In this document: positions 34,664 through 50,107 of the stretch, one piece after another
Position numbering within the stretch: position 1 is the stretch's first letter
Layout of the letters: each line of letters begins with the position of its first letter
NCBI GenBank assembly: GCA_965248055.1
Contig: CBDFIJ010000004.1
Span: 1,756,299-1,820,298 of the forward strand
Direction: 5' to 3'
DNA length: 64,000 bases
Origin: Candidatus Multivoradales bacterium
Lineage (GTDB): Bacteria; Acidobacteriota; Thermoanaerobaculia; Multivoradales; JAHEKO01
Translations under genes and position numbers: made by a program
Notes under the pieces: model-generated
What the model saw: only the letters and a program-made list of their open reading frames with translations
What the model was told of the DNA's origin: nothing
Databases searched by the model: none

Positions 34664-35101
34664 TCACCCCCGGGAAACCCAGGAGTGAATCTTGGCCCGC
34701 AGACGTTCGACCCGAGCAAGAACTCCCGGCCAGCGGCTGAGCGCCCGAAGAATAATTCGGTAGACCAACTCGCTGGCCAGAGAAAGAACCGCCGCTCCGG
34801 CAACAATAGTCAAAATCCCCTGGATACCTGGGAGAACTAGGCCGGCGATTCCAATCAGTAGCAACAACCAGCCGACGATCAGCAAGAGCACCCTGGTGAC
34901 CGTCGACAGCGGAGACAGCTTGCGATCCCCATCCGGCTTCACCGCCAGCTCCAAGGGAGAGTCCTCTGGATTCCCTCCAAAACTATTTTCCGGTACGGAC
35001 GGATCAGAGGTACCCAATTGGGTATCAGGGGACTCTTCGGTGCCATGGGCTGAAGAGGGCTGGGTTGCTGGCGGCCGGGTTGTTGGGGGTTGGCTCATTT
35101 G
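34664..35101 (-). CDS. PGPGW-type small transmembrane protein
   Basis: 'LVLPGIQGILTIVAGAAVL' is a PGPGW-family motif. The start was chosen at MSQPP. Confidence 0.5.
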   Translation of the reverse strand, partial: QMSQPPTTRPPATQPSSAHGTEESPDTQLGTSDPSVPENSFGGNPEDSPLELAVKPDGDRKLSPLSTVTRVLLLIVGWLLLLIGIAGLVLPGIQGILTIVAGAAVLSLASELVYRIILRALSRWPGVLARVERLRAKIHSWVSRG

Positions 35102-35235
35102 CAGTTTGCATCCTACGCACGAAATTCCATTCATCCAAGCGAAACCAACCTAATCGACGTCAGCTATTTTCCTCGCTTGGTTCCATCAACTTGTCTGTTG
35201 ACATCCTTTTTAGAAGTCGAAAGAATGTGTCAGGA

Positions 35236-35273: not shown

Positions 35274-35741
35274 ATGCACACTACCCGCGAACGACAACAG
35301 TTCATCCGAGGACTGCAGCAAAGGGGACACCGGGTCACTCCAGAGCGACTGGCTGTCTTCGACGCTGTCTTCGCTTTGCACGGCCATCTGGAGGTAGACC
35401 AGATCTATCAAAGGATGCAGCTGCACAACCATGGTGTCTCGCGCGCAACCTTGTATCGCAATCTTGAGGTACTGGAGCGTCTGGGTTTGGTGCGCAAGAT
35501 TCAAGCTGGCAACCGTCGGGTGCTCTACGAGCATCTACACGCTGGTCAAGATCATGGTCATTTGATCTGCCGCGAGTGTTCCCAAGTGATCGAATTCTTG
35601 AGTCCGGATGTCACACAAGCACTGGCTGCTCTTTGTCGCGAGCATGGCTTTGAAGAAAATGAAAACCAAGTCACCGTCCAGGGGTTGTGCGGAATCTGCG
35701 CAAGCTGGAGCGGTGAGACAAATCGAGCAGCTAGCGCCTAA
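35274..35741 (+). CDS. Fur-family metalloregulator (Fur, Zur or PerR type)
   Basis: 'HAGQDHGHLICRECSQVIEF' and C-terminal 'CGICAS' are Fur-family metal-site motifs. Confidence 0.8.
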   Translation: MHTTRERQQFIRGLQQRGHRVTPERLAVFDAVFALHGHLEVDQIYQRMQLHNHGVSRATLYRNLEVLERLGLVRKIQAGNRRVLYEHLHAGQDHGHLICRECSQVIEFLSPDVTQALAALCREHGFEENENQVTVQGLCGICASWSGETNRAASA

Positions 35742-35771: not shown

Positions 35772-37970
35772 ATGGATCTCGCAACTTGGGCATTGTTGAC
35801 CGCACTCGCGGCGAGCTCTGGCGCCACAGGAGAAGCCCCAGAGGCTCCCGTCGAGGAATCGATCGGAGAGGTACACGCTGTCTTTGACAACTTGACGGTG
35901 GTCGGCAGTGCCGAGACAGCGGGCGGCTCCGCCCATGTCATCGGGCAAGCCCAGTTGGAGGTACACAACTACAACGACGTTCACCGAGTGCTGCGGCAGG
36001 TTCCTGGAGTCAACATTCAAGAAGAAGATGGATTTGGTCTTCGACCCAACATTGGTATTCGAGGAACCGGCGTCGAACGGTCGCAAAAAATCACGTTGAT
36101 GGAGGACGGTGTCCTGATCGCCCCGGCGCCCTATGCAGCACCGGCCGCTTACTACTCTCCGACGGTCGGGCGGATGGAGAGCCTCGAGGTACGCAAAGGC
36201 ACCAGCGCCGTGCGGCAGGGTCCACACACAACCGGGGGGGTGATCAATTATCGTTCGACCAGTATCCCGGAGTCGTTTTCTGGAAAAGCGGAGCTAGCAC
36301 TCGGAACCGATGGTCTGCTCCGAACCCACGCCTATGCGGGCGACAGCAACCAGCGGCTTGGCTGGCTGGTCGAGGGATATCAACTATCCAGCGATGGCTT
36401 CAAGCAGCTCGATACCGCCGACAGTACCGGGTTTGACCTGACCGATCTGGTTGCCAAGTTTCGTCTCTCTTCTCGATCCGATGCCAAGATCTATCAAGCG
36501 GCTGAACTCAAGCTGGGCTGGAATCAGCAAGACGGAGCCGAGACCTATCTCGGTCTTACCGCCGAAGACTTTGAACGCACTCCGTATCGGCGTTACGCCG
36601 GTTCGTCGGCCGATCGCATCGACACGGAACACAATCAGTTTCAGCTATCGTATTTCGCTCAGCTCTCGCCTCGTTTCGACCTAACCGCGGTCGTCTATAA
36701 CAATGAATTTTCGCGCAACTGGCACAAGTTGCAGTCGGTAAATGGACTTGGATTGAATGCCGTCTTGAACGATCCGCAGAACCACTCGGCGGAGATTTCC
36801 GTTCTTCGTGGAGATCTCAACGCGGTCGACAGTCTCTCGGTACGCAACAACCGGCGCGACTACTTCTCGCGCGGCGTGAGCGCATCGCTAGGAGCACACG
36901 TTGACGGACGGATTCGCCACGACCTGGAAGTTGGCGTACGAGTGCATCGCGATGAAGAGGATCGTTTTCAAGAGGAAGACCTCTACAACATGAGCTTTGG
37001 ACAACCCTTGTTGTCTTCACTGGGGGCCCCCGGGAGTCAGTCCAACCGAGTTGCCTCCGCCAACGCAATCGCGGTTTTTTTTGAAGATAGCTTTTCTTTT
37101 GGAAAATGGACCGTAACGCCAGGAGCCCGCTACGAGGTCATCGATCTGGAGCGCCAGGACTATGGACGATCCGATCCCGTTAGAGGAAGTGAGCCAAGGT
37201 CGACGACCAATCGGGTCCGCCAACTGGTTCCCGGAGTCCGGGTGCAACACGTAGTCAATGAACGCAATTTGTGGTTCGCCGGCCTCTACCAAGGTTTCTC
37301 TCCGCCAACCCCGGGATCGAACGAACGGGTCGAGCCCGAGGAAAGCGACAACATTGAAATCGGCTGGCGCTATTCCGGACGCAAGCTAGCGGCCGAAGTC
37401 ACCGGTTTCTACTCAAACTATGGCAACCTGCTTGGCACCGACACGCTCTCAAGCGGTGGTGATGGCACCGGCAACCAGTTCAACGGCGGCAGTGCCTTGG
37501 TGCAAGGACTGGAAGCCGCCGCGACGTGGGAACTGCGACCTTCCCAGTCGGCGCAAGTGCCTCTTCGCTTGGTCTATACCTACACCGACACGGAGTTTCT
37601 CTCCAGTTTTGAAACCAACTTTGCCGACTGGGCGCCTCAAGTGGAACGTGGAGACGAACTCCCGTATGTGCCCAAGCATCAACTGACCCTGGGGGCTACC
37701 TGGAATAGCCCACGTTGGTCGGTTGGCATCGACGGTAACTTGAACGGGGCGATGCGTACCCTTGCTGGCGCTGGCGCAATCCCGTCTGACAGTGGGATCC
37801 CCAGTCGTTGGACCTGGGATCTGGCGATCGAGCGCGACCTGAGCTCTTACCGTCTGTTTCTCCAGGTGCGCAACCTAACCGATAACACCTATTTGGTGGC
37901 GCGGCGACCCGCCGGACTCCGCCCGGGGATGCCAAGAACCGTGGTGGTCGGAGTAAAGGTCGACTTCTAG
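35772..37970 (+). CDS. TonB-dependent outer-membrane receptor
   Basis: Plug domain and a 22-strand barrel with a C-terminal '...VVVGVKVDF' aromatic terminus. The start lies 30 bp after the Fur-family gene. Confidence 0.9.
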   Translation: MDLATWALLTALAASSGATGEAPEAPVEESIGEVHAVFDNLTVVGSAETAGGSAHVIGQAQLEVHNYNDVHRVLRQVPGVNIQEEDGFGLRPNIGIRGTGVERSQKITLMEDGVLIAPAPYAAPAAYYSPTVGRMESLEVRKGTSAVRQGPHTTGGVINYRSTSIPESFSGKAELALGTDGLLRTHAYAGDSNQRLGWLVEGYQLSSDGFKQLDTADSTGFDLTDLVAKFRLSSRSDAKIYQAAELKLGWNQQDGAETYLGLTAEDFERTPYRRYAGSSADRIDTEHNQFQLSYFAQLSPRFDLTAVVYNNEFSRNWHKLQSVNGLGLNAVLNDPQNHSAEISVLRGDLNAVDSLSVRNNRRDYFSRGVSASLGAHVDGRIRHDLEVGVRVHRDEEDRFQEEDLYNMSFGQPLLSSLGAPGSQSNRVASANAIAVFFEDSFSFGKWTVTPGARYEVIDLERQDYGRSDPVRGSEPRSTTNRVRQLVPGVRVQHVVNERNLWFAGLYQGFSPPTPGSNERVEPEESDNIEIGWRYSGRKLAAEVTGFYSNYGNLLGTDTLSSGGDGTGNQFNGGSALVQGLEAAATWELRPSQSAQVPLRLVYTYTDTEFLSSFETNFADWAPQVERGDELPYVPKHQLTLGATWNSPRWSVGIDGNLNGAMRTLAGAGAIPSDSGIPSRWTWDLAIERDLSSYRLFLQVRNLTDNTYLVARRPAGLRPGMPRTVVVGVKVDF

Positions 37971-38077: not shown

Positions 38078-39688
38078 ATGACGAAGAGTCCATCAAAACC
38101 CCGCAAGAGAGCCCCCTATTGGTTGGCAGTGTTCGGCCTGGCGCCAATCTTATTTGCGCCCGTTCCAGCTTTTTTGCGATACCACGGCTGGTCTGTCCTC
38201 ACCATAGATGGACTTGTCCTGGGTCTCATCTGTTTCGCAACTGCCGCATTTTTGTTTCTTATACCTGGCACTCGACGACGCCTATCGTTGAGCGGTGTTT
38301 ACGCTCTCGCGACTCTCTTTTTTTTCGACTTCCAGTTTCAAGCTCTTACCGGTTGGATCACTCTTGCCGGAGCCTTCGGCCTTGTTTTCACAGTCTGTTT
38401 CGGGCTGTTTGAAAAACTTCCGCAATTGACCACCTTTGTCTTCGGCTTGATGAGTCTTTTGGCTTTGTTCTCAGTTCCTAATAGTGACCATCGCGCTGTC
38501 GCTGGGGACCCAAACCTGCCACCGATCGTTTACTTGATCGTCGATGAGCACCTCGGAGTTGGCGGAATTCCAGCACTGGGTCGAGGTCCGGAAATCCAAG
38601 AAATGTTGCGCGATGCGTACATCCAACGGGGATTTAGGATCTACGAAAATGCATACTCTCTCCACGATATGACCCAACACTCCATTGCCTCCATCCTCAA
38701 CGGCTCGGACCGATCCGACGGGTTGGTTGAACCGGGACAGACCTCGAAGTGGAAGGTGACGAAGTCCCGTTTATTGAAACGTTGGGCCGACCAGGGTTAC
38801 CGGATCAATGTCTACCAATCAGACGCGCTCAACCTTTGCGATCTGCGAGAGGTAGAAATCGATTCCTGCTACACCTACAGCGTTTGGAGCCTGACCGGAA
38901 TCCTGGAAGGCTTGCCGTGGTATTCCCGGGAGCGGACCACTAGTGTCCTGTTGGCGATGGCGAACAGATCGCAGATCTTCTCCAAAGCGCGTAGTCAATA
39001 TAACAAGTTCGCGGAGCGTTCTCCGTCACTACCCGAGTGGCCCATTCGTGCTCGACCCCCAGGACCTCTGGCGATTCTTTCAGCCACCAAGGCCCTCCGC
39101 CAAGACTTGGCAAGGCAACCTAGGGGCCATGTCTTTCTTGCTCACTTGCTCCATCCACACTTTCCTTATGTCTACAACCAAGACTGCAGTGTTAAGCCAA
39201 AAGACGAATGGACTGCGCCGAAATGGAACAGGAAGGGCCGGATGCGTGACATGCGCAAAATTAGAGAAGATAACTACCCTGCTTACTTCGATCAGTTGGA
39301 GTGCGCCACGGTGATGGTAAACAAGTTGATTGATGAGATCGGAGAGCAGCCGGAGTTCCACGACGCAACGTTGATCGTTCATGGCGACCATGGCTCCCGT
39401 ATTTGGGTCAAAAAACCACTCACCTATAACAGACCAAGCGAACAAGACCTTATCGATAGCTTTTCCACCCACTTGGCGATCCGGGGCCCAGGCGTTACGC
39501 CTGGCGCCAACCTTCAGCCGGTGTCTGTCAACCAGGCAATCGCCAAGCACTGGGGTCTTCCTCTAAGACTTGAAGATAAGCCCGGGCTGTACGCAAGGCC
39601 GAACCGGAACCAGTTTCCAAGACCCAAGCTTGCTCTACCAGAAATCTGGCGTGACTCAATCACCGATACAATGGATCAGCCAGACTAA
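38078..39688 (+). CDS. Membrane enzyme paralog A: five transmembrane helices plus an alkaline-phosphatase-superfamily (LtaS/EptA/sulfatase-like) catalytic domain
   Basis: Five N-terminal transmembrane helices. Then 'PIVYLIVDEH' (metal-site acidic residue), 'YENAYSLHDMTQHS' (candidate Thr nucleophile about 45 residues later), 'LLHPHFPY' and 'IVHGDHGSR' (Asp-His metal site). Confidence 0.7.
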   Translation: MTKSPSKPRKRAPYWLAVFGLAPILFAPVPAFLRYHGWSVLTIDGLVLGLICFATAAFLFLIPGTRRRLSLSGVYALATLFFFDFQFQALTGWITLAGAFGLVFTVCFGLFEKLPQLTTFVFGLMSLLALFSVPNSDHRAVAGDPNLPPIVYLIVDEHLGVGGIPALGRGPEIQEMLRDAYIQRGFRIYENAYSLHDMTQHSIASILNGSDRSDGLVEPGQTSKWKVTKSRLLKRWADQGYRINVYQSDALNLCDLREVEIDSCYTYSVWSLTGILEGLPWYSRERTTSVLLAMANRSQIFSKARSQYNKFAERSPSLPEWPIRARPPGPLAILSATKALRQDLARQPRGHVFLAHLLHPHFPYVYNQDCSVKPKDEWTAPKWNRKGRMRDMRKIREDNYPAYFDQLECATVMVNKLIDEIGEQPEFHDATLIVHGDHGSRIWVKKPLTYNRPSEQDLIDSFSTHLAIRGPGVTPGANLQPVSVNQAIAKHWGLPLRLEDKPGLYARPNRNQFPRPKLALPEIWRDSITDTMDQPD

Positions 39689-39745
39689 GACGCCGCGTCG
39701 GCTGGACGCTAACGCACTCCAAAGAAACTCCCGACTAAGAGAATC

Positions 39746-39943
39746 ATGATGAGATTCGACACCTCAAGAAACACTGCGTTTGTGATCGCAGCAGTGCTGA
39801 CCATCTGCTTGTTAATTCCGACGCCAAGCTACGCATATCTAGGCCCTGGCACCGGAGGTAGGACCTGGGATCTGGCGATCGAGCGCGACCTGAGCTCTTA
39901 CCGTCTATTTCTCCAGGTGCGCAACCTAACCGATAACACCTAG
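39746..39943 (+). pseudogene. Truncated mini-gene: signal peptide and YLGPGTGG, then fused in-frame to a duplicated copy of the TonB-receptor 3' end
   Basis: The first 38 codons parallel the intact mini-gene at 41769. After 'GTGG' the sequence becomes the copy of 37810..37970 and reads '...RTWDLAIERDL...'. Confidence 0.6.
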
Positions 39944-40021
39944 TTGGTAGCGCGGCGACCCGCCGGACTCTGCCCTGGGATGCCAAGAACCGTGGTGGCC
40001 GGAGCAAAGGTCGACTTCTAG
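39861..40021 (+). repeat. 161-bp duplicate of the 3' end of the TonB-receptor gene (37810..37970), 154 of 161 nt identical
   Basis: Direct nucleotide comparison shows 7 mismatches, one of which creates a premature stop (tatttgg to tagttgg). Confidence 0.9.
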
Positions 40022-40121
40022 ACGCCTGCAAGCGATTGTCGCGAAGCGATCCGTATCTGTGGCAAAATCGAGCGGTTCGGATATTTTGAATAGGGACGCC
40101 CCCGTCCTTGGGATCGCGATT

Positions 40122-41750
40122 ATGACGAAAATGCCATCAATGGCCATAAGGCAGGCACCCTTTAGGTTGGCAGTCGTTGGCCTAGCGCTGATTCTCTTTG
40201 CCCCGATTCCAGCCTTTCTGAGGCATCAAGAGTGGTCCGCGATCAATATCGACGGGGCCATCCTAGGACTACTTTGTCTCGCGATAGCCACACTGGTATT
40301 TCTTATCCCTGGAAGTCGGGGGCGAATCGGATTGAGCACTATCTATGCTCTAGCCATTCTCTGGTTCGTAGATTTTCAATTCCAAATGTTTTCGAGTTGG
40401 ATAGCCTTCGCTGCAGGGTCTGTCGTTGCTTTCGCAGTCTGCGTTGCCCTGTTTGAAAAGCTATCGGAACTAGCAACATTCGTCTTCGGCTTGATGATTC
40501 TTCTGTCATTGATTCCTGTGCGCAGCCGTGACCGCGAGGTAGGCGTAAGCGATCAACGGCTCCCACCGATTGTCTATTTAATCCTTGACGAACACATTGG
40601 GGTTGCAGGTGTTCCCGCTATCGAGCGTGGCCCCGAGATTCAAGAATTATTGCGTCGCGAGTACCTCCAGCGCGGGTTTCGAATCTACGAGAACGCGTAT
40701 TCACTACACGACTTCACTCACCATTCGCTCGCTTCGGTTCTCAACGCCAGTGACCGCAGCGATGGTTTCCTTCTGCCAGGAAAAAAAACCTGGCAGTGGG
40801 GAGTCCGCAAATCTAGTGTGTTGAGACACTGGGTAGATCAAGGATACCGCCTCCGAATCTATCAATCAGACTGGCTGGATCTATGTAACTTGGAGGGAAT
40901 CAAAGTGGAATCTTGCTTCACCTACAGTGCCTGGAGTATTAGCAATCTGGTGGAATATCCGTGGAATTCGGTTGAACGAACTAGTGGGATTCTTGTCGTC
41001 ATAGCGAATCGCTCACAAATTCTTCTTAAGATTCGCGGTTGGTATGACAGCCTTTCCAAGCAGGGTTTTGGAGGCTTGAACCTTCCAATGTGGCCGGTAC
41101 GAGCTAGCCGACCGGGTGCCTTGGTCGTCCGTTCCGCGACCAAGGTATTGCAACACGATCTTGAGTCCAATCCGCGGGGAACCGTTTTTCTCGCTCACCT
41201 GCTACATCCTCATTCTCCTTATGTATATGACGCCAACTGTGGGGTAAAGCCCAAAGGTGATTGGGCGGCACCATCGCTAGATCGAAAAGGTAAGGTAAGG
41301 GCTCTGCGGGAGAGCCGGACGACTCACTATCGTGATTACTTCGATCAGCTCGAGTGTCTAACCACCCAGATAGGAGAGCTAATTGATGCGATTGGTGAAA
41401 GTACCGAGTTGAGAGATGCGACTGTTCTAATCCACGGTGATCATGGGTCTCGTCTTTGGGTCAAACCACCGCGTACCTACAACAAGCCTACTGAAAGAGA
41501 CTTGTTGGATACTTTCTCAACTTTTCTTGCTGTTCGCGGCCCAATGATCCAGCCCGAACTCAATATTGAACCTGTACCCGTAAATCAAATTGTCGCCGAA
41601 CTCGCGGAGGTTCCGTTTGTTCTTCATGACGGTCCCGCGCCATACTCACGACCGAACTACTATGATCCTCCTCGTCACAAGTTGCCCCTTCCGTCGATCT
41701 GGCGGACATCGAACAACACACCTAAGGTCCGTCCGAAAACCCTCAACTAG
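40122..41750 (+). CDS. Membrane enzyme paralog B, same architecture as A (about 55 to 60% identical)
   Basis: Same motifs: 'PIVYLILDEH', 'YENAYSLHDFTHHS', 'LLHPHSPY' and 'LIHGDHGSR'. The start was chosen at MTKMPS, because the sequence gggatcgcgattATGACGAA is conserved with paralog A. Confidence 0.7.
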   Translation: MTKMPSMAIRQAPFRLAVVGLALILFAPIPAFLRHQEWSAINIDGAILGLLCLAIATLVFLIPGSRGRIGLSTIYALAILWFVDFQFQMFSSWIAFAAGSVVAFAVCVALFEKLSELATFVFGLMILLSLIPVRSRDREVGVSDQRLPPIVYLILDEHIGVAGVPAIERGPEIQELLRREYLQRGFRIYENAYSLHDFTHHSLASVLNASDRSDGFLLPGKKTWQWGVRKSSVLRHWVDQGYRLRIYQSDWLDLCNLEGIKVESCFTYSAWSISNLVEYPWNSVERTSGILVVIANRSQILLKIRGWYDSLSKQGFGGLNLPMWPVRASRPGALVVRSATKVLQHDLESNPRGTVFLAHLLHPHSPYVYDANCGVKPKGDWAAPSLDRKGKVRALRESRTTHYRDYFDQLECLTTQIGELIDAIGESTELRDATVLIHGDHGSRLWVKPPRTYNKPTERDLLDTFSTFLAVRGPMIQPELNIEPVPVNQIVAELAEVPFVLHDGPAPYSRPNYYDPPRHKLPLPSIWRTSNNTPKVRPKTLN

Positions 41751-41768
41751 CAATCGCAGGAGAATAAA

Positions 41769-42014
41769 ATGACGTCCTTCAGCTCAAGGAATATGACAGC
41801 CCCAACCTTGGTAGCAGTTGCCCTGTGTCTACTACTATCCCCTACCCCTGGGCATGCATATCTAGACCCTGGCACCGGAGGTATGGCGATTCAGGCGTTG
41901 ATCGCCATCCTCGCCGGAACCTGGCTCGCCATCCGGCTTTTTTGGTCGAGAATCGTTAGATTTTTCAAGCCAAAAGGATCTGATTCGGCATCGCCAGATT
42001 CAGAATCATCGTAG
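41769..42014 (+). CDS. Mini-protein: signal peptide, Y-L-D-P-G-T-G-G, one transmembrane helix, then a basic and acidic tail
   Basis: 81 aa. 'MTAPTLVAVALCLLLSPTPGHA' followed by 'YLDPGTGGMAIQALIAILAGTWLAIRLFWSRIVRFFKPK'. There is a paralogous truncated copy after paralog A. Confidence 0.55.
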   Translation: MTSFSSRNMTAPTLVAVALCLLLSPTPGHAYLDPGTGGMAIQALIAILAGTWLAIRLFWSRIVRFFKPKGSDSASPDSESS

Positions 42015-42057
42015 CGGAAGACTCTGGTTTTCAAGCCTTTCTTGATTCTCTTCCTCA

Positions 42058-43455
42058 ATGTATAACCCTGTGGAAACTGGCCTCCCTGAAGCTGAAGGGG
42101 GATCGTTTCGCGACCCTCGCGGCCACGTTCATATTGCCAACGGGCGGGTTTTTCGCACCATCTCTCCAGCCGCTTTGGACGACTTCCGTATGGTTGTCGA
42201 ATCCGGAGTGGTCGCCAAGCTCGAAGAGTCTGGCGATCTGGTACCGACCTGGGAGACGGATCAAGCAACCCCGAACACTACCGGTGACGCCAGTGTGGTC
42301 GTTGAGCATCCCTGCTTACCACTCATCAGCTACCCCTACGAATGGCCTTTTCAGCTGCTCAAACGAGCCGCATTGTTTCATCTCGACTTTCATCTCAAGT
42401 GCTTGGAGCACCGGGTGACCCTGACCGATGCGACGGCCTACAACGTCCAGTTTGTCGGGGTACGACCCGTTTTCATCGATCGCTTAGCTCTCAAACCCTA
42501 TTTCGAGGGCGAGTACTGGGCTGGGTATCGTCAGTTTTGCGAGCAGTTTCTCAATCCGCTGCTCCTGTCGTCTTTTCACGGAATCCCAATCCATCAGTGG
42601 TATCGGGGCTCGATTGAGGGAATCTCTGCTCGTGATACCGCCACCCTACTTCCACTGAAACGACGACTATCTCCTCGAGCTTGGATGCACGTGACACTTC
42701 AGGCCCGCCTCAATCGCGAACAGACTGCCCAAGTCTCCGACCGGGTCATCAAGCAACGCCCCTTGCCGCTCCCCGCTCTTCAGAGCATGCTACGGAGCTT
42801 CCACAAGTGGATCTCCCGATTGCAACCTCCTCAACGACCCACCGTTTGGGCAGACTACGACTCCACCCACGGATATACCGATACCGAGCAAGAGAAGAAA
42901 GCTAAAGCGATCGCGCGGTTTATCGAGGGCCACAAGCCAACAACCGTTTGGGACCTGGGTTGCAATACCGGGTTTTACTCGCAGATCGCATTGCAGCACG
43001 GAACGTCCTCAGTGATCGGACTGGACCTGGATGAAGGGGCCTTGGGAGGGGCTTTTGATCGCGCTCAATCCGAAAACCTAACCCTGACACCTTTGTTGTT
43101 CGACGCCGCCAACCCAACCCCGGCACAAGGATGGCGTCTGCGGGAGCGCAGCAGACTCGCTGAACGCTCAACCCCGGATGGCATTCTTGCCTTGGCAGTC
43201 CTGCACCATATGGTCTTAGGCCGCAATATCCCGCTACCGGAGGCGATCAAGTGGCTGGTGGGTCAAGCGAAGTGTGGCGTCATCGAGGCGGTACCCCGCA
43301 CCGACCCACAAGTGAAGCGGATGATGGTCTTTCGAGACCATCATCATGAATATGGGGTTGAAGAGATACGCCAGGAGCTGGCAAGGCAAGCCACCGTCAC
43401 AGAAACCGTCGTGGTATCGGAGTCAGGTCGAGAGTTGTTGTTTTTCAAGCGCTAG
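42058..43455 (+). CDS. Uncharacterised 465-aa protein with a C-terminal class-I SAM-dependent methyltransferase fold
   Basis: 'VWDLGCNTGFYS' is motif I, followed by 'VIGLDLDE'. The N-terminal roughly 270 aa are unrecognised. Confidence 0.6.
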   Translation: MYNPVETGLPEAEGGSFRDPRGHVHIANGRVFRTISPAALDDFRMVVESGVVAKLEESGDLVPTWETDQATPNTTGDASVVVEHPCLPLISYPYEWPFQLLKRAALFHLDFHLKCLEHRVTLTDATAYNVQFVGVRPVFIDRLALKPYFEGEYWAGYRQFCEQFLNPLLLSSFHGIPIHQWYRGSIEGISARDTATLLPLKRRLSPRAWMHVTLQARLNREQTAQVSDRVIKQRPLPLPALQSMLRSFHKWISRLQPPQRPTVWADYDSTHGYTDTEQEKKAKAIARFIEGHKPTTVWDLGCNTGFYSQIALQHGTSSVIGLDLDEGALGGAFDRAQSENLTLTPLLFDAANPTPAQGWRLRERSRLAERSTPDGILALAVLHHMVLGRNIPLPEAIKWLVGQAKCGVIEAVPRTDPQVKRMMVFRDHHHEYGVEEIRQELARQATVTETVVVSESGRELLFFKR

Positions 43456-44681
43456 AATGCGGAGTCCACGACCACTTTGACAAATCGCCTCTTGCCCACC
43501 TTGACCACATAACCGGAGAGATTGTCTGGCAATTCAACCCGAGGGTCTTGGGCTCTTTCACCGTCGATCGACACCGCGCCCTGCTGAACCAACCGTTGAG
43601 CCTCTTTGTTGGAGGACGCCAGCCCCGCGAAGGTAAGTGCTTTAAACAGTTGCATCGGAACGATCGAGACCTGTGGAATGTCTTCCGGAATGCCTCCGTC
43701 GGAAAACACTTCGCCAAACTCTCGGGCCGCTTGGTCCGCCACCGAATCGCCATGCAGATCTGCAGTTAGCGTCTGCGCCAATTGACGCTTGGCGTCCATC
43801 GGATGGAGATCGCCCTCGGAGACTCGATCCTTCAAGGCTTCAATCTCCACCTCTTGTAGATCGGTCAATAATAGCCACCAATCCCACATCTGCTGATCGG
43901 AGATCGACATCGTCTTGCCATAGACCTCCGCCGGCGGGTCGGTCAACCCGATCGCATTGCCGAGACTCTTGGACATTTTGTCGACGCCGTCAGTGCCTAC
44001 CAACAGCGGCACAGTCAAGACCACTTGAGGTTCCATGCCTTCCTCTTTCATCAACTGACGACCTACCAGTAGATTGAAGATCTGGTCGTGACCGCCCAAC
44101 TCAACGTCTGCTTTCATGGCAATCGAGTCGTAGCCTTGAACCAAGGGATAGAGCAACTCGTGGATACTGATCGGCTGGTTTGCCGCGAAACGAGTACGAA
44201 AGTCGTCACGCTCCATCATCCGCGCCAAGGTGTAGCGACCAGCGAGCCGAATCAGCCCTTCTGACCCCAACTCGTCGAGCCACCTGGAGTTGTAGTCAAT
44301 CGTGGTTTGCTCTCGATCCAGAATGCGCACCACTTGCTCTTCATAGGTGCGGGCGTTGGTTAGCACCTCTTGGGCAGTGAGTTGAGGCCGGGTGGCCTTC
44401 TTGCCCGTCGGGTCGCCTATTCGTGCAGTGAAGTCGCCAACCAGAAAGACCACTGAGTGTCCTAAATCTTGGAAGTGCTTCATCTTGCGCAGCAAGACGG
44501 TGTGCCCGAGATGAAGATCAGCCGTTGAAGGATCAAAGCCAGCCTTGATCGTCAGCGGCTGGCCAGACTTGCGCGACGCCTCCAGCTTGCGCGCAAACTG
44601 CTCGGAATTAATCAGGTCAACCGAACCCCGACTGAGCAGGGCTAGCTGCTGCTCAACTGGAAGAAACTCCGAATTAGACAC
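43452..44681 (-). CDS. tyrS: Tyrosyl-tRNA synthetase
   Basis: 'HLGH' and 'KMSKSLGN' class-I motifs, with a C-terminal S4-like domain. 409 aa. Confidence 0.9.
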   Translation of the reverse strand: MSNSEFLPVEQQLALLSRGSVDLINSEQFARKLEASRKSGQPLTIKAGFDPSTADLHLGHTVLLRKMKHFQDLGHSVVFLVGDFTARIGDPTGKKATRPQLTAQEVLTNARTYEEQVVRILDREQTTIDYNSRWLDELGSEGLIRLAGRYTLARMMERDDFRTRFAANQPISIHELLYPLVQGYDSIAMKADVELGGHDQIFNLLVGRQLMKEEGMEPQVVLTVPLLVGTDGVDKMSKSLGNAIGLTDPPAEVYGKTMSISDQQMWDWWLLLTDLQEVEIEALKDRVSEGDLHPMDAKRQLAQTLTADLHGDSVADQAAREFGEVFSDGGIPEDIPQVSIVPMQLFKALTFAGLASSNKEAQRLVQQGAVSIDGERAQDPRVELPDNLSGYVVKVGKRRFVKVVVDSAF

Positions 44682-44901
44682 CGCAGGAGCTTAGCATCGG
44701 CCAAGCAAATCACTACCAAGAGGAACAGATACGTCGGCTACAGGTACGTGAACACCATTGGGATGTCGAGCCTAGATCCAGAGCCTGAGGTGCTGGGTCT
44801 ACGACGACTGTCGAGTGTGCTGACGATATTACCAAGCGAAGAGTCGGGACCGTTCGCGGGGACATTGATTAGCAGCGATAGCTCCTGAGGCAGAGGCAAC
44901 G

Positions 44902-46270
44902 GAGTTATTGTCAAAAGTTGTGTATTGAGCCATCAGGCGGCGATCTGTTTTTGTTTTTCTCCGTCCACGAACTGGAGACCTTCAACGACTTCGGCAATGC
45001 GCCTGTAGCCCTGTAGCCTCCGCCATCGTTTTTCTGCGCTTTGGCACAGCTTGAAGACCATCGAGAGCATGGTTTCTCGCGACAGACAGCCCCGGGTTTT
45101 GGAGGTTCTCAAGCGTACGGTAGCAAAAGTTGATGCGATTGGGTTGGTGGTCCTCAAATGCACCCAGTGCTCAGCCGGGAAATCGTAGAAAGCGAGTAGC
45201 TGGACGCGATCTTTGACCAAGCACTGGACTGCTTTCGGATATTTAGCTTGGTAGATTGCCTGGAATGCATCAAAAGCCCTCTCGGCATCGTGACGTGTCT
45301 GCGCCATCCAGATTTGGTGGATTGCCTGCTTGGCCTTGGGCTGGATCGCCTTGGGGAGCTTATTCAAGACGTTGGCCGTCTTGTGGACCCAGCAGCGCTG
45401 GGTCTTGGTATTTCCCCACACCTGAGCCAGAGCCTTCCAGAAACCCAGATTGCCGTCACCGATTGCGATCTTAGGCTCGAATGTAAGGCCTCTTGCTTCC
45501 AGGCCTCGCAACAGCTCCAGCCATGACGCCTCACTCTCCCGGTAACCGTCTTCAACAGCGATCAGTTCTTTGTTGCCGTCCGCAGTGGCACCAATTAACA
45601 CCAGCAAGCAGAGCTTGGCGTTATCCAGGCGAGCCTTGCAGTAAATGCCGTCAGCCCATACATAGACGTAGCGCTTGGACGAAAGATCGCGCTGCCGCCA
45701 TTCGCTGTACTCCTGGCCCCAGACGCGTTTGAGGCGGCTCACCGTCGAAGACGAAAGACCTGGCGCTTCAGGGCCCACCAAAGCTTCCAGAGCTCGTGAG
45801 AAGTCCCCGGTAGAAATCCCCCGTAAGTATAGCCAGGGCAAGAGATCCGCGATGCTCTTGGACCGGCGCAGATACGGTGGCACTAGATTGGAGCGAAAAT
45901 GAAGCTCACCCTGGCGATCCCGCACCCGTGGCACTTTGACCGAAATGCCGCCGATTCCGGTCTGGATCTCCCGCTCTGGCATGTAGCCGTTTCTCACCAA
46001 CCGCCGGTGACCGACCGCCGTACGTTGATCTTGGTACTCAACCAAAAAACTCTCCACCTCTGCCTCGATTGCTTCGCAAAGAAGCAACCGTGAACCTCGG
46101 CGCAAGACCTCGGTCAGAGCGTCCTCAGGACGCTCTACTTGATCGATTGAAACTACGTTACTCTTGCTCAACGGCGTGTCCTCCTTTTGGGATGATTGAA
46201 CCCAGCTTTGAAAACCGGGCTCAGGATACGCCGCCTTCAAACTCTCATACACAACTTTTGGTTATATCTC
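44902..46270 (-). mobile_element. IS256-family insertion sequence, intact, flanked by a 9-bp direct repeat GAGGCAACG (44893..44901 and 46271..46279)
   Basis: Terminal inverted repeats GAGtTATtgtCAAAAGTTGTGTAT and ATACACAACTTTTGgttATAtCTC. A perfect 9-bp flanking duplication is visible in the sequence. Confidence 0.85.
44933..46252 (-). CDS. IS256-family (mutator-type) transposase
   Basis: 439 aa, with an '...WADGIYCKAR...' DDE region and an IS256-like N-terminus. Confidence 0.85.
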   Translation of the reverse strand: MYESLKAAYPEPGFQSWVQSSQKEDTPLSKSNVVSIDQVERPEDALTEVLRRGSRLLLCEAIEAEVESFLVEYQDQRTAVGHRRLVRNGYMPEREIQTGIGGISVKVPRVRDRQGELHFRSNLVPPYLRRSKSIADLLPWLYLRGISTGDFSRALEALVGPEAPGLSSSTVSRLKRVWGQEYSEWRQRDLSSKRYVYVWADGIYCKARLDNAKLCLLVLIGATADGNKELIAVEDGYRESEASWLELLRGLEARGLTFEPKIAIGDGNLGFWKALAQVWGNTKTQRCWVHKTANVLNKLPKAIQPKAKQAIHQIWMAQTRHDAERAFDAFQAIYQAKYPKAVQCLVKDRVQLLAFYDFPAEHWVHLRTTNPIASTFATVRLRTSKTRGCLSRETMLSMVFKLCQSAEKRWRRLQGYRRIAEVVEGLQFVDGEKQKQIAA

Positions 46271-46496
46271 GAGGCAACGTGGTTGACCCCACATGCACAA
46301 CATCTCTTAACTATCGTTGCATTCCGCGGCACCACGGTTACATCTCGGTACAATTAATCAAGGATCTGGCAATATGTGTAGTGGACCTGCATGAAAACCA
46401 ATCGCCGGTTCGCCCGTCTTCGTCCGTTGCAGACATTCCAAGTGCGAGCACTAATAAGGTTCTTCGTCTTGATGCCAAGGTCTCCTAGGAGTCCCG

Positions 46497-48068
46497 TTGA
46501 CTGACAGCAAACGTAGCTCCACTTCACCGAAGATCTCCTTCTGGACAGCTGTTCTCGCGCTAGCCCTGATTCTTTTCGCTGTCTTCCCACCGTTTTTTCG
46601 TCACCATGGCTTGTCGTTTCTAAGCCTGGAGCTTGTCGCTTTCGCCTTGATCTGCGGTTTTTTATCTAGCGTACTTCACCTCATCCCCGCGACTAGAACG
46701 CGGTGGTTTTCAAGCACAATCTTGGGTGCTGCCTTGACTCTGCTTATCGACATTCAATTCGGTTCGATCTCAAGCGAGCTTTCTCTGATCGGACATCTCT
46801 TCGTCACAACGGGTGTTTGCGTACTTTTGTTTCCCCATGCTCATCGAGTGCTCACGGCGTTCGCTGGAGTTCTTATCCTGCTTTCTCCAACCGTGGCCAC
46901 CAAAAGCACCAGCACTCCCAGTCACCACCAGATCGAACGAGACACTTCGTTGCCGCCGATTGTCTATCTGATTCTCGATGAACACATCGGCATAGGAGGT
47001 ATCTCCAATCAGTTTGTACAAGAGCGCACCAAGATTCTCGGTGAATACATACAACGGGGATTCCTAGTCTACGAAAACGCTTACTCACTGCACGACATGA
47101 CTCTTGCATCCATGGGATCTCTTCTTAATGCCCGCCCGACAGTTGAGCATGCGATCGAAGGCAATCGTCAAGAAGGCTTCTCTTTATCGAAATCTGTACT
47201 CTTTCGGTATTGGGCAGATCTAGGATATCGCTTCTCTATCTATCAATCTGAGTATCTTGATTACTGCTCTGCAGCAAAACCGGCGGTCGACCTCTGCATA
47301 ACCTACGATCAATACATTGGGCTCGACGTTCTGAAACCTCTTGAGACCATCGACTACACGGTCACCGCACTATTCTCAAGATCCGAGATTGCTATGAAAG
47401 GAAGGGTCCGTTACAACTTTCTACGTAACAAGGTACCCCAGTCGATACGGCCGCCACGATTGCCTCCGCCGCCAACCGGCTCTTGGGCGGCAAGATCTCG
47501 TGTCGCATTGGATGAGATGCGCAAACAGGCGCTTGTCGACCCAGAAGGAAGAGTATTCTTTGCACACCTACTCCATCCGCACAAACCGCACATCTATGAC
47601 CAGGAGTGCCGCCCAAGGAGGTCGACGAGGTCGTCGATCCTTTCGTCTTCGCATTACATGGACCAAGTGTTGTGCATTACAAAGCAGCTCGGCGAAACCC
47701 TTGACGAATTGCTCTCGCTCCCTTCATTCAAAGATGCTGTGGTAGTTGTCCACGGAGATCACGGTCCTAGGCTTATGGGGGATCTTGCGCTCAATGGTGA
47801 CAAGGAGATCCCACAGGAATTCATCATTGATAGGTTTTCAACATTCCTTGCGATAAAGACACCTGAAGTTGCTTCTGGTATAACTCGGTTTCCCACTTCG
47901 ATCAACTCAGAAATTCCTGCAATTTGGTCTATACCCAACTCCGTACCCCACAAACCTATGCTTCAATTGACCCAAAACCTTATGACGGTTGAGTCACTGA
48001 CAGATCGGAAAGTGCAGGCCATCAACCTTCCGGATTTTTGGGGTTTATCGGTGTCCATGAAGCCTTGA
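46497..48068 (+). CDS. Membrane enzyme paralog C (about 35 to 40% identical to A and B), TTG start
   Basis: 'PIVYLILDEHIGIGG', 'YENAYSLHDMT', 'LLHPHKPH' and 'VVHGDHGPR'. RBS 'aggag' 8 nt before the TTG. Confidence 0.65.
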   Translation: MTDSKRSSTSPKISFWTAVLALALILFAVFPPFFRHHGLSFLSLELVAFALICGFLSSVLHLIPATRTRWFSSTILGAALTLLIDIQFGSISSELSLIGHLFVTTGVCVLLFPHAHRVLTAFAGVLILLSPTVATKSTSTPSHHQIERDTSLPPIVYLILDEHIGIGGISNQFVQERTKILGEYIQRGFLVYENAYSLHDMTLASMGSLLNARPTVEHAIEGNRQEGFSLSKSVLFRYWADLGYRFSIYQSEYLDYCSAAKPAVDLCITYDQYIGLDVLKPLETIDYTVTALFSRSEIAMKGRVRYNFLRNKVPQSIRPPRLPPPPTGSWAARSRVALDEMRKQALVDPEGRVFFAHLLHPHKPHIYDQECRPRRSTRSSILSSSHYMDQVLCITKQLGETLDELLSLPSFKDAVVVVHGDHGPRLMGDLALNGDKEIPQEFIIDRFSTFLAIKTPEVASGITRFPTSINSEIPAIWSIPNSVPHKPMLQLTQNLMTVESLTDRKVQAINLPDFWGLSVSMKP

Positions 48069-48901: not shown

Positions 48902-50107
48902 TCACGGCGCCAATACGTCGACCAACTCGCTCGGATCGCTGGCGTTTCCTGATCGATCCACTGCTGTTACTTGGTAGCTGTACTGCTGGCCCGATGACGC
49001 CGTTTGGTCGGTGAACTCGAGGCTAGAAACCAGCGTCTCGTTCAAAGTTTGAGAGAGCCCACCCTGCGATCGAATCACCGCATAGCCGTCGTGGTCACTG
49101 GGTGGTTGATGGCGCCAGAGCAAGCGGATGCCGGTTGAATCTGGAATCGCTACCAAGGCCGTGGGGGCGTCGGGTGGAAAAACGTCACGATAGAAAACCT
49201 CCCGTTGGCTACCCCAGGCGCTCTCAACCCCTCGGGGCCCAACGGCGGTAACCGCGTACACCCAACGCTGACCCATTTCGGCCGTAGTGTCGAGCAACGA
49301 CGGTGCTTCGGAAGCGGCGACCGCTTGAAAAGGCGCTCCAAATTGAGGATTCTCGGCCCCTCGGCGGTAGATCTTGTAGCCGGTGACCGACTCGTCAGCC
49401 AAGAGATCCCAAGAAATCCGTATTCCCTCGGCGGTTGCCTCGGCCCGCAAACTGACGATCGACTCTGGCGGGGCAATCGGATGGACAGACGTGATATTGG
49501 AAGTTGCCGAATTTCGGTCGTTGGCTTTGACCACCACAGCATACGAATAGATCCACGGGTCCTGTGGAAGCGCCTCGTCGCGCATGCGAATCACGATCTG
49601 GTCGCCGTCAATCAAACGCCCGACATCACTTTGACCATATTCTTTGATGGTCCCGGCAAAACTCTCAAACATACGCTGGTCGACCCCAGGTAATTCGATC
49701 ACCTCTTCACCATCCAGGTCGTTCTCAGCCGACTCCAAGGTCGCAGCGGCATCATCTTCAGCAGGTTCGATTTCAGACGCTGATTCCTCTTCGCCGGCCG
49801 CCTCTAGGGTTTCCTCAGTGAGTTCCCCAGAATCTAGCGCAGCCGACTCCAACAGCTCGGGGGCTTCCTGGTCAAAGCGCAAAATGTTGATTCCTTGCAC
49901 CTCGGTGATCGGCAAACCGCTTTCGGTGACCGACGGATAGCTGAACCGCAGCACGATCTCTGGGCCCTGTTGACTCGCCTGAAGATCGTGAACCGCTGCC
50001 GGAGCCAGCGATGGCGGTGGGACCGGATTGCCTTTGCGACCACAACTCGCTGCCATCAACAGTAAGGCGGAAGCCCAAAGTACTGATTTTGAATACTTAA
50101 AGAACAT
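48902..50107 (-). CDS. Lipoprotein with an acidic linker and fibronectin-III-like repeats
   Basis: Lipobox 'LLMAASC', and repeated 'Y.Y.V.AV...G.ES' beta-sandwich-like segments. Confidence 0.6.

Follow-up and report, generated by a model that had tools for sequence, protein, structure and literature searches.

What kind of enzyme is encoded by three diverged, clustered paralogs in an acidobacterial genome, and with which partners does it act? The window analysed here, a stretch of 64,000 nucleotides on contig CBDFIJ010000004.1 of Candidatus Multivoradales bacterium, contains three such genes (paralogs A, B and C; Table 1), which an original prediction made from the sequence had taken for unusually compact relatives of the membrane enzymes LtaS and EptA, in a module not recognised as a described system. 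Homology and gene context assign them to diverged homologues of the nodulation protein NoeB within the alkaline-phosphatase superfamily, and they are accompanied by a homologue of NoeA and by one intact gene for a mini-protein. We propose, with a probability of roughly 0.6, that the three NoeB paralogs are periplasm-facing phosphoryl or phosphodiester transferases (or phosphodiesterases) which share the single NoeA and the single intact mini-protein.

The relationship to NoeB emerged from several searches. In a tblastn search of plasmids, the only matches of paralog A were to the symbiotic plasmids found in Sinorhizobium, Ensifer and Rhizobium (E value for pSymA, 1e-37), and these matches fall on genes annotated 'nodulation protein NoeB'. 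In BLASTP comparisons with NoeB of Sinorhizobium meliloti, paralog A gave an E value of 1e-44 with an alignment (residues 39–485; 28% identity over 484 amino acids [aa]) that extends into the membrane region, and paralog C one of 2e-32. The S. meliloti protein resembles the paralogs in its length (553 aa), its five N-terminal hydrophobic segments and its motifs (IVTDE, a threonine at the nucleophile position, FLFPHSP, and HGDHGSR), the identity being approximately 28–30%. On pSymA, too, noeB adjoins noeA and a small open reading frame (ORF) for a mini-protein with the motif YLDPGTGS. The two loci differ in gene order, which is noeB-mini-noeB-mini-noeA here and mini-noeA-noeB on pSymA, in the number of noeB copies (three versus one), and in that neither nodL nor a nod box adjoins the cluster in the window. 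Thus, both homology, which runs over nearly the full length of the proteins, and gene context place the paralogs in the NoeB family. The noeB gene of S. meliloti was reportedly described by Ardourel et al. in 1995. Together with noeA it is part of a flavonoid-inducible nod operon, and both genes affect host range (PMC9758233).

NoeB proteins are numerous and uniform in size. An exhaustive search with a hidden Markov model (HMM) yielded 14,307 cluster representatives at E<=1e-3; at E<=1e-30 there were 1,368 clusters (50% identity), nearly all of them with proteins of about 500–600 aa, and the best 150 matches were all 483–597 aa long and aligned end to end. The compact architecture is therefore the norm of this family rather than a peculiarity of the locus, and the length of 600 to 760 aa which had been assumed for the EptA class does not apply to E. 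coli EptA with its 547 aa. A count of 22 relatives in a word-indexed search and of 23 in a profile search, which would have made the family a rare one, proved to be an artefact in view of the exhaustive search.

The system has likewise been described before. A survey of Legionella kinases published in 2022 identified in silico Lani_1194 of Legionella anisa as a NoeA homologue consisting of an atypical kinase domain and an S-adenosylmethionine (SAM) methyltransferase, found a protein of about 65 aa (Lani_1193) and a NoeB homologue (Lani_1195) in 65% and 38%, respectively, of 816 neighbourhoods, and reported the trio as a conserved functional unit across approximately 1,200 species whose function was stated as unknown (PMC9758233). 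Lani_1193, Lani_1194 and Lani_1195 correspond to the trio found here. The survey is focused on the kinase and covers neither the YLDPGTGS motif nor the topology nor the expansion of alkaline-phosphatase paralogs (PMC9758233). With noeB named since 1995 and the trio described in 2022, the locus reveals no new kind of system.

Regarding the three genes themselves, the original prediction proved accurate. All three ORFs are present and translate without interruption, the motifs LPPIVYLI(V/L)DEH, YENAYSLHD(M/F)T, LLHPH.P and HGDHG(S/P)R occur in this order, and the spacing given as about 45 residues corresponds to 43 residues from D156 to T199. Hydrophobic helices at approximately residues 12–136 of each paralog, as seen in helices of the AlphaFold2 (AF2) model and in hydropathy profiles, account for the five transmembrane (TM) helices that had been predicted within about 140 aa. 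In a multiple alignment paralogs A and B are 55.9% identical, A and C 37.2%, and B and C 34.5%, close to the anticipated range of about 35 to 60%. For paralog B an alternative start codon exists (GTG 40059); we favour ATG 40122 as the predicted start because it is aligned with the N-terminus of A and is preceded by the same sequence as in A (GGGATCGCGATTATGACGAAG). The TTG start codon of paralog C lies six nucleotides past AGGAG.

All three paralogs matched the Pfam family Sulfatase (PF00884) with 30–37 bits, the gathering score being 25. Paralog A was modelled by AF2 with a predicted local distance difference test (pLDDT) score of 87 and a predicted template modelling (pTM) score of 0.87, and in this model a helix (199–207) begins with T199; the N-terminus of a helix is the canonical position of the nucleophile in the alkaline-phosphatase superfamily. 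Among 21 diverse homologues D156, T199, H356, H361, D437, H438 and R441 are invariant and E157 is nearly so, as are, without exception, four cysteines that fall into the pairs C254/C264 and C370/C409. Paralogs A, B and C all keep the conserved catalytic residues and the four cysteines. The predicted set of Glu, Thr, His and Asp-His residues is hence conserved throughout the family, and it aligns with residues of EptA and LtaS. Specifically, hhalign paired E157, H356, H361, D437 and H438 with E244, H380, H385, D455 and H456, respectively, of a profile made from E. coli EptA, EptB and EptC, and in the family profile the GDHGS motif was aligned with D475 and H476 of LtaS. The latter enzyme consists of five TM helices and an extracytoplasmic domain, and its Mn ligands are E255, T300, D475 and H476.

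A basic N-terminus, the five TM helices, an RRR motif in the loop between TM2 and TM3, and the four invariant cysteines of the catalytic domain with their pairwise arrangement together suggest that this domain faces the periplasm. Five TM helices and a periplasmic domain of an alkaline-phosphatase-like fold are also the architecture of PbgA/YejM, whose role is the non-catalytic binding of lipopolysaccharide or cardiolipin, and the paralogs might be non-catalytic membrane proteins of that type which bind lipid or lipopolysaccharide and serve as sensor or regulator. Since neither the nucleophile nor any ligand of metal or phosphate varies among the 21 homologues or the three paralogs, we regard such a role as highly improbable.

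A PDB sequence search with paralog A returned marginal matches to choline sulfatases only, and the HPHxP motif of the paralogs is more sulfatase-like than its counterpart in EptA, MCR-1 and EptC. That the NoeBs are sulfatases which strip a substrate in the periplasm or envelope of its sulfate esters is very unlikely all the same. PF00884 also takes in the catalytic domains of EptA and LtaS. S1 sulfatases such as the choline sulfatase BetC of S. meliloti have no membrane anchor and depend on a formylglycine derived from C/S-x-P-x-R. In the NoeB paralogs the position of the formylglycine is occupied by an invariant threonine (context M-T-Q-H-S; (M/F)-T-x-x-S), C/S-x-P/A-x-R is absent, and no maturase gene was found nearby. 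Lacking this defining motif, the paralogs are not S1 sulfatases, and a five-TM anchor in combination with a threonine nucleophile is the pattern of phosphotransferases such as EptA and LtaS.

EptA, MCR-1 and EptC resemble the paralogs in their five TM helices, in a PF00884 domain that is periplasmic, as predicted for the paralogs, and in their length, and they use a threonine nucleophile, the role proposed for T199. Unlike EptA, however, the paralogs match neither the NCBIfam models for EptA, CptA and MCR nor the Pfam model for the EptA N-terminal domain, and their TM region is shorter by about 50 residues. Sequence similarity to LtaS and LtaP is limited to the C-terminal metal motif (E=1e-3), and nothing here points to a polymerase. 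In our view the paralogs probably act like members of the EptA/MCR and LtaS families, yet stand outside them because none of the corresponding profiles was matched.

Several points weigh against the proposed transferase function. The profile searches advocated in the original prediction had a divided outcome: PF00884 was matched above its gathering score, but no EptA, CptA, MCR or LtaS profile was matched by any paralog at E<=0.01, while E. coli EptA, which served as a control, scores 1086 bits. The profile-profile alignment with the Ept proteins has a low probability of 29% (E=5.8e-4), and it required the three-sequence profile, a single EptA sequence giving a probability of 0.4%. In this alignment T199 is located two residues off the EptA nucleophile T280, and no equivalent was found of the histidine that binds the second zinc in EptA and MCR-1. 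A demonstrated activity has been reported for no member of the NoeB family, and the periplasmic orientation of the domain is one which we infer from the features of topology listed above.

The divergence of the three paralogs is unevenly distributed over their length. Identity (A-B/A-C/B-C) is highest in the catalytic core (64/47/47%) and lowest in a helical insert comprising residues 271–347 (45/22/19%), with the C-terminal region at 48/32/23%, and a loop of 19 residues that follows C370 is missing from paralog C. Neighbour-joining with 246 members of the family groups A, B and C in a clade of their own with the structure ((A,B),C). The triplication therefore arose by duplication within this lineage, and the view that it is old and has been retained is borne out by the exclusive clade and by the catalytic residues kept in every copy. 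Expansions of NoeB in place also occur elsewhere, namely in a metagenome-assembled genome of Binatia (L056; four matches) and in loci L086, L050 and L028 (three matches). The copies within these loci are mutual best matches with 37–57% identity, and such expansion has taken place independently in several lineages, other phyla included.

The most widespread partner of NoeB, a noeA homologue, had been missed in the original prediction, which drew the module as enzymes and mini-proteins. The 465-aa product is 41% identical to S. meliloti NoeA over 98% of its length (1e-90) and has no hydrophobic segment according to its hydropathy profile. In its N-terminal part the kinase-like residues R33, D124, N129 and D141 are invariant in 28 homologues. 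Residues of the same type were named for the Legionella homologue, on whose behalf an atypical kinase domain was assigned in which Arg replaces the catalytic Lys (PMC9758233). A profile of the N-terminal domain detected no relative by sequence in the PDB. The C-terminal part is a predicted class I SAM methyltransferase domain with a DLGCNTG motif at residues 299–305, for which there are weak Pfam matches and support from Foldseek; the Foldseek matches of the NoeA model are dominated by generic methyltransferases and say nothing on the kinase fold. We conclude from these features that NoeA is predicted to be an atypical kinase-like domain, a part of the assignment taken from PMC9758233, fused to a SAM methyltransferase. 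The closest analogue of NoeA is WbdD, the chain terminator of the E. coli O9a O-antigen, which likewise carries kinase and SAM methyltransferase on a single chain and whose methyltransferase domain (4azs) was among the Foldseek matches (2.3e-6). The analogy was also drawn in PMC9758233. NoeA differs from WbdD in its reversed domain order, in the lack of a coiled coil, and in the Arg that takes the place of the catalytic Lys.

The third component is represented in the window by mini A and mini B. Mini B consists of a signal peptide ending in PGHA, the sequence YLDPGTGG, one TM helix, and the basic tail RLFWSRIVRFF. Mini A, when aligned with mini B at the DNA level, matches only in the signal peptide and in YLGPGTGG; it scores 22 bits with the family HMM as compared with 84 bits for mini B, and it has retained a single hydrophobic segment, its TM helix and basic tail being lost. 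Mini A is thus probably non-functional. The assertion that two of the paralogs are each paired with a mini-protein therefore holds insofar as two mini-ORFs exist, but mini B alone looks functional.

No Pfam or NCBIfam model exists for the mini-protein family, and the motif YLDPGTGS turned up in no paper when the literature was searched for it. The family HMM has the consensus PAxA followed by YLDPGTGSxxLQxLLGGxAGxxVxxKLYWxRxKxFF, in which Y1, D3, G7 and Q12 are invariant and the YLDPGTGS motif is conserved to 86–100%. The conserved A-x-A has the appearance of a classical signal-peptidase site, and the mature peptide would thus present YLDPGTGS at the periplasmic surface of the membrane, with the basic tail in the cytoplasm. 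An unnamed 71-aa ORF between nodL and noeA on pSymA (VPAHAYLDPGTGSMLVQGLIG; AHAYLDPGTGS...) is a clear homologue. In several loci the mini-protein gene is translationally coupled to its neighbours or overlaps them. Two intact mini-protein genes are present in L010 (1768–1986 and 3284–3514), where the extra copy is located behind a gene resembling those for nucleotide-sugar dehydrogenases, and in L086 (4496–4783 and 6729–6956), where each copy precedes a different partner, first NoeB and then NoeA. Duplication of the mini-protein gene therefore accompanies expansion of the cassette elsewhere, whereas one copy has decayed here. An apparent in-frame fusion of NoeB with the mini-protein in L079 was dismissed as out-of-frame read-through in GC-rich DNA.

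How firmly the three components belong together was judged from 79 NoeB loci drawn from species-representative genomes. NoeA is encoded within 5 kb in 55 of them and the mini-protein, as detected by HMM, in 59. The proposed pairing of enzyme and mini-ORF is thus real, but it is part of a larger association, the mini-protein being a component of the entire trio with NoeA. In all three NoeA loci inspected the mini-protein gene is situated immediately upstream of noeA, and in two of the three a membrane-anchored alkaline-phosphatase-like enzyme is encoded downstream. Such enzymes follow the mini-protein/NoeA pair in Skermanella sp. TT6 (L006, 8391–9986) and in a metagenomic contig (L008, 8536–9948). 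They are only marginally NoeB-like there (BLASTP, 4e-4 against paralog A; weak matches to PF00884 and PF01663), so that the core of mini-protein and NoeA seems to have partners from more than one clade of alkaline-phosphatase-like enzymes. On pSymA the order is nodL, the 71-aa ORF, noeA and noeB. A third gene order of the trio was seen in Acidobacteriota/Vicinamibacteria (L014, L018, L025, L029, L051, L065, L070, L071, L087, L088), where noeA is divergent from the mini-protein gene and noeB, both on the other strand, with an intergenic region in common. When 85 loci were inspected for other conserved neighbours, none was found except a cluster with an ABC-F ATPase (11 loci), the remaining flanks being heterogeneous. 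As nothing else recurs in the flanks, the trio is best regarded as a self-contained unit in variable contexts.

This distribution bears on the possibility that it is a secreted signal molecule which the cassette decorates, in line with a proposal made for the Nod factors of S. meliloti, rather than the envelope of the cell itself. The flavonoid-inducible nod operon and the host-range effect of noeA and noeB would fit such a role, as would the acetyltransferase gene nodL next to the cassette on pSymA and an OafA-type O-acetylase gene next to it in Legionella. By contrast, the loci come from Alpha-, Gamma- and Deltaproteobacteria and Binatia as well as from Acidobacteriota, Myxococcota, Gemmatimonadota, Nitrospirales and Legionellales, the latter five being among the groups that make no Nod factors; the flanking genes vary; and the literature reports no change in Nod factors due to noeA or noeB. 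Moreover, the predicted periplasmic orientation of the NoeB domain is at odds with the decoration of Nod factors in the cytoplasm (PMC9758233). Taken together, we consider a function in signal decoration unlikely.

An anti-phage system related to BREX/Pgl comprises the same three enzyme classes, namely a kinase, a methyltransferase and, in PglZ, a protein of the alkaline-phosphatase fold. The methyltransferase domain of NoeA weakly matches the PADLOC model mad2 (1e-10), and an insertion sequence (IS) element is located nearby. The mad2 match covers only the generic methyltransferase fold, though, and PADLOC gave no match for NoeB or the mini-protein. PglZ is cytoplasmic and in this unlike the NoeB domain, which has conserved cysteine pairs and a predicted location in the periplasm, and no ATPase, helicase or nuclease partner was found. 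A defence function of this kind is thus extremely unlikely.

Returning to NoeB as a periplasm-facing transferase, we propose the following model. Each NoeB would bind a divalent metal via D156/E157 and D437/H438, and Thr199 would serve as the nucleophile that gives rise to a covalent phospho-enzyme intermediate. The phosphoryl-linked group would then either be hydrolysed or reach an acceptor on the outer side of the inner membrane, in a chemistry like that of EptA/MCR-1, LtaS and OpgB. The analogy with WbdD suggests that NoeA phosphorylates and methylates a donor or substrate on the cytoplasmic side, and the mini-protein, a precursor of about 75 aa that would be processed to a bitopic peptide of about 45–50 aa, might be the shared membrane partner spanning between NoeA and NoeB. 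One common upstream step would in this way supply three transferases that differ in their specificity for acceptor or donor, which fits the presence of one NoeA and one intact mini-protein along with three NoeBs that diverge most in the helical insert and the C-terminal region.

It is tempting to speculate that the processed mini-protein is itself the acceptor or primer, with the NoeBs placing phospho-linked groups onto Thr, Ser or Tyr of YLDPGTGS from a donor that has been phosphorylated and methylated by NoeA. Such a donor might for example be a methyl-phosphodiester, which would conserve energy in the ATP-free periplasm, and the three paralogs might write different phospho-forms or a short polymer on a dedicated membrane peptide of 45 residues. 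The 86–100% conservation of the motif, its predicted position, which coincides with where the active site of NoeB would be, and the self-contained nature of the trio are compatible with this idea, which we nevertheless regard as distinctly unlikely.

Table 1. Features of the noeB-noeA locus and its surroundings (positions refer to the window).
Feature	Position	Strand	Description
noeB paralog A	38078..39688	+	536 aa; five TM helices (~12-136) and alkaline-phosphatase-fold domain
mini A, degenerate mini-protein gene	39746..39943	+	65 aa; alignment, family HMM, hydropathy
noeB paralog B	40122..41750	+	542 aa; architecture and catalytic residues as in A
mini B, intact mini-protein gene	41769..42014	+	81 aa; family HMM 84 bits
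noeA homologue	42058..43455	+	465 aa, soluble; S. meliloti NoeA match
noeB paralog C	46497..48068	+	523 aa; TTG start, AGGAG Shine-Dalgarno
IS256-family element, complete	44902-46270		transposase ORF 44933-46252 (-); NF033543, 1.7e-94
Fur-family regulator gene	35274-35741		PF01475, E=3.4e-25
TonB-dependent siderophore-type receptor gene	35772-37970		30 bp downstream of Fur-family gene
156-aa ORF	34664-35134	-	PGPGW putative transmembrane domain; PF09656, 1.3e-7
401-aa ORF	48902-50107	-	C-terminal fibronectin type III domain; weak rhamnogalacturonan-lyase beta-sheet match

Within the window noeB-A, the decayed mini A, noeB-B, the intact mini B and noeA follow one another, while noeB-C is found about 3 kb beyond the rest of the cluster, separated from it by tyrS and the IS256-family element (Table 1). 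The noeA gene and tyrS, which is on the minus strand, are convergent, with 3' ends that share 4 bp (43452–43455). The IS256-family element has 24-nucleotide imperfect inverted repeats as termini and is flanked on both sides by the 9-bp target-site duplication GAGGCAACG. Its insertion site, 226 bp upstream of noeB-C, splits the tyrS/noeB-C intergenic region, and the element may affect the expression of noeB-C. The GC content at third codon positions is 0.59 for noeB-A, 0.51 for noeB-B, 0.53 for noeB-C and 0.62 for noeA as compared with 0.64–0.70 for neighbouring housekeeping genes; the lower values of the noeB paralogs may reflect a horizontal origin or relaxed codon selection.

Upstream of the cluster, the stop codon of the TonB-dependent receptor gene is separated from the start of noeB-A by 107 bp, a distance at which co-transcription of the two genes is possible. 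The receptor had been called Fur-controlled. A Fur-family gene is indeed located upstream of it, but a search of the window with the E. coli consensus found no Fur box of the E. coli type at <=3 mismatches, so that control by Fur is at most putative. The TonB receptor and other genes nearby for components of a Gram-negative envelope indicate that the host is probably Gram-negative. Further out, the ORF with a PGPGW domain is located between a citrate synthase gene and the fur-like gene, and the 401-aa ORF, which has dapF and hslU as neighbours, starts with a sequence like the lipoprotein signal of LptM-type proteins.

Our analysis extends the view of a cassette whose genes noeA and noeB have been on record as host-range genes since 1995 and which is present in thousands of genomes from many phyla, including those of Legionella. 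The locus shows this cassette outside any nod context, and with an NoeB:NoeA:intact mini-protein stoichiometry of 3:1:1. Given this ratio and the recurrent independent expansion of NoeB, it is NoeB that looks like the specificity-determining component, and NoeA and the mini-protein that look like a common core. This hint at the role of NoeB may guide the search for the substrate.

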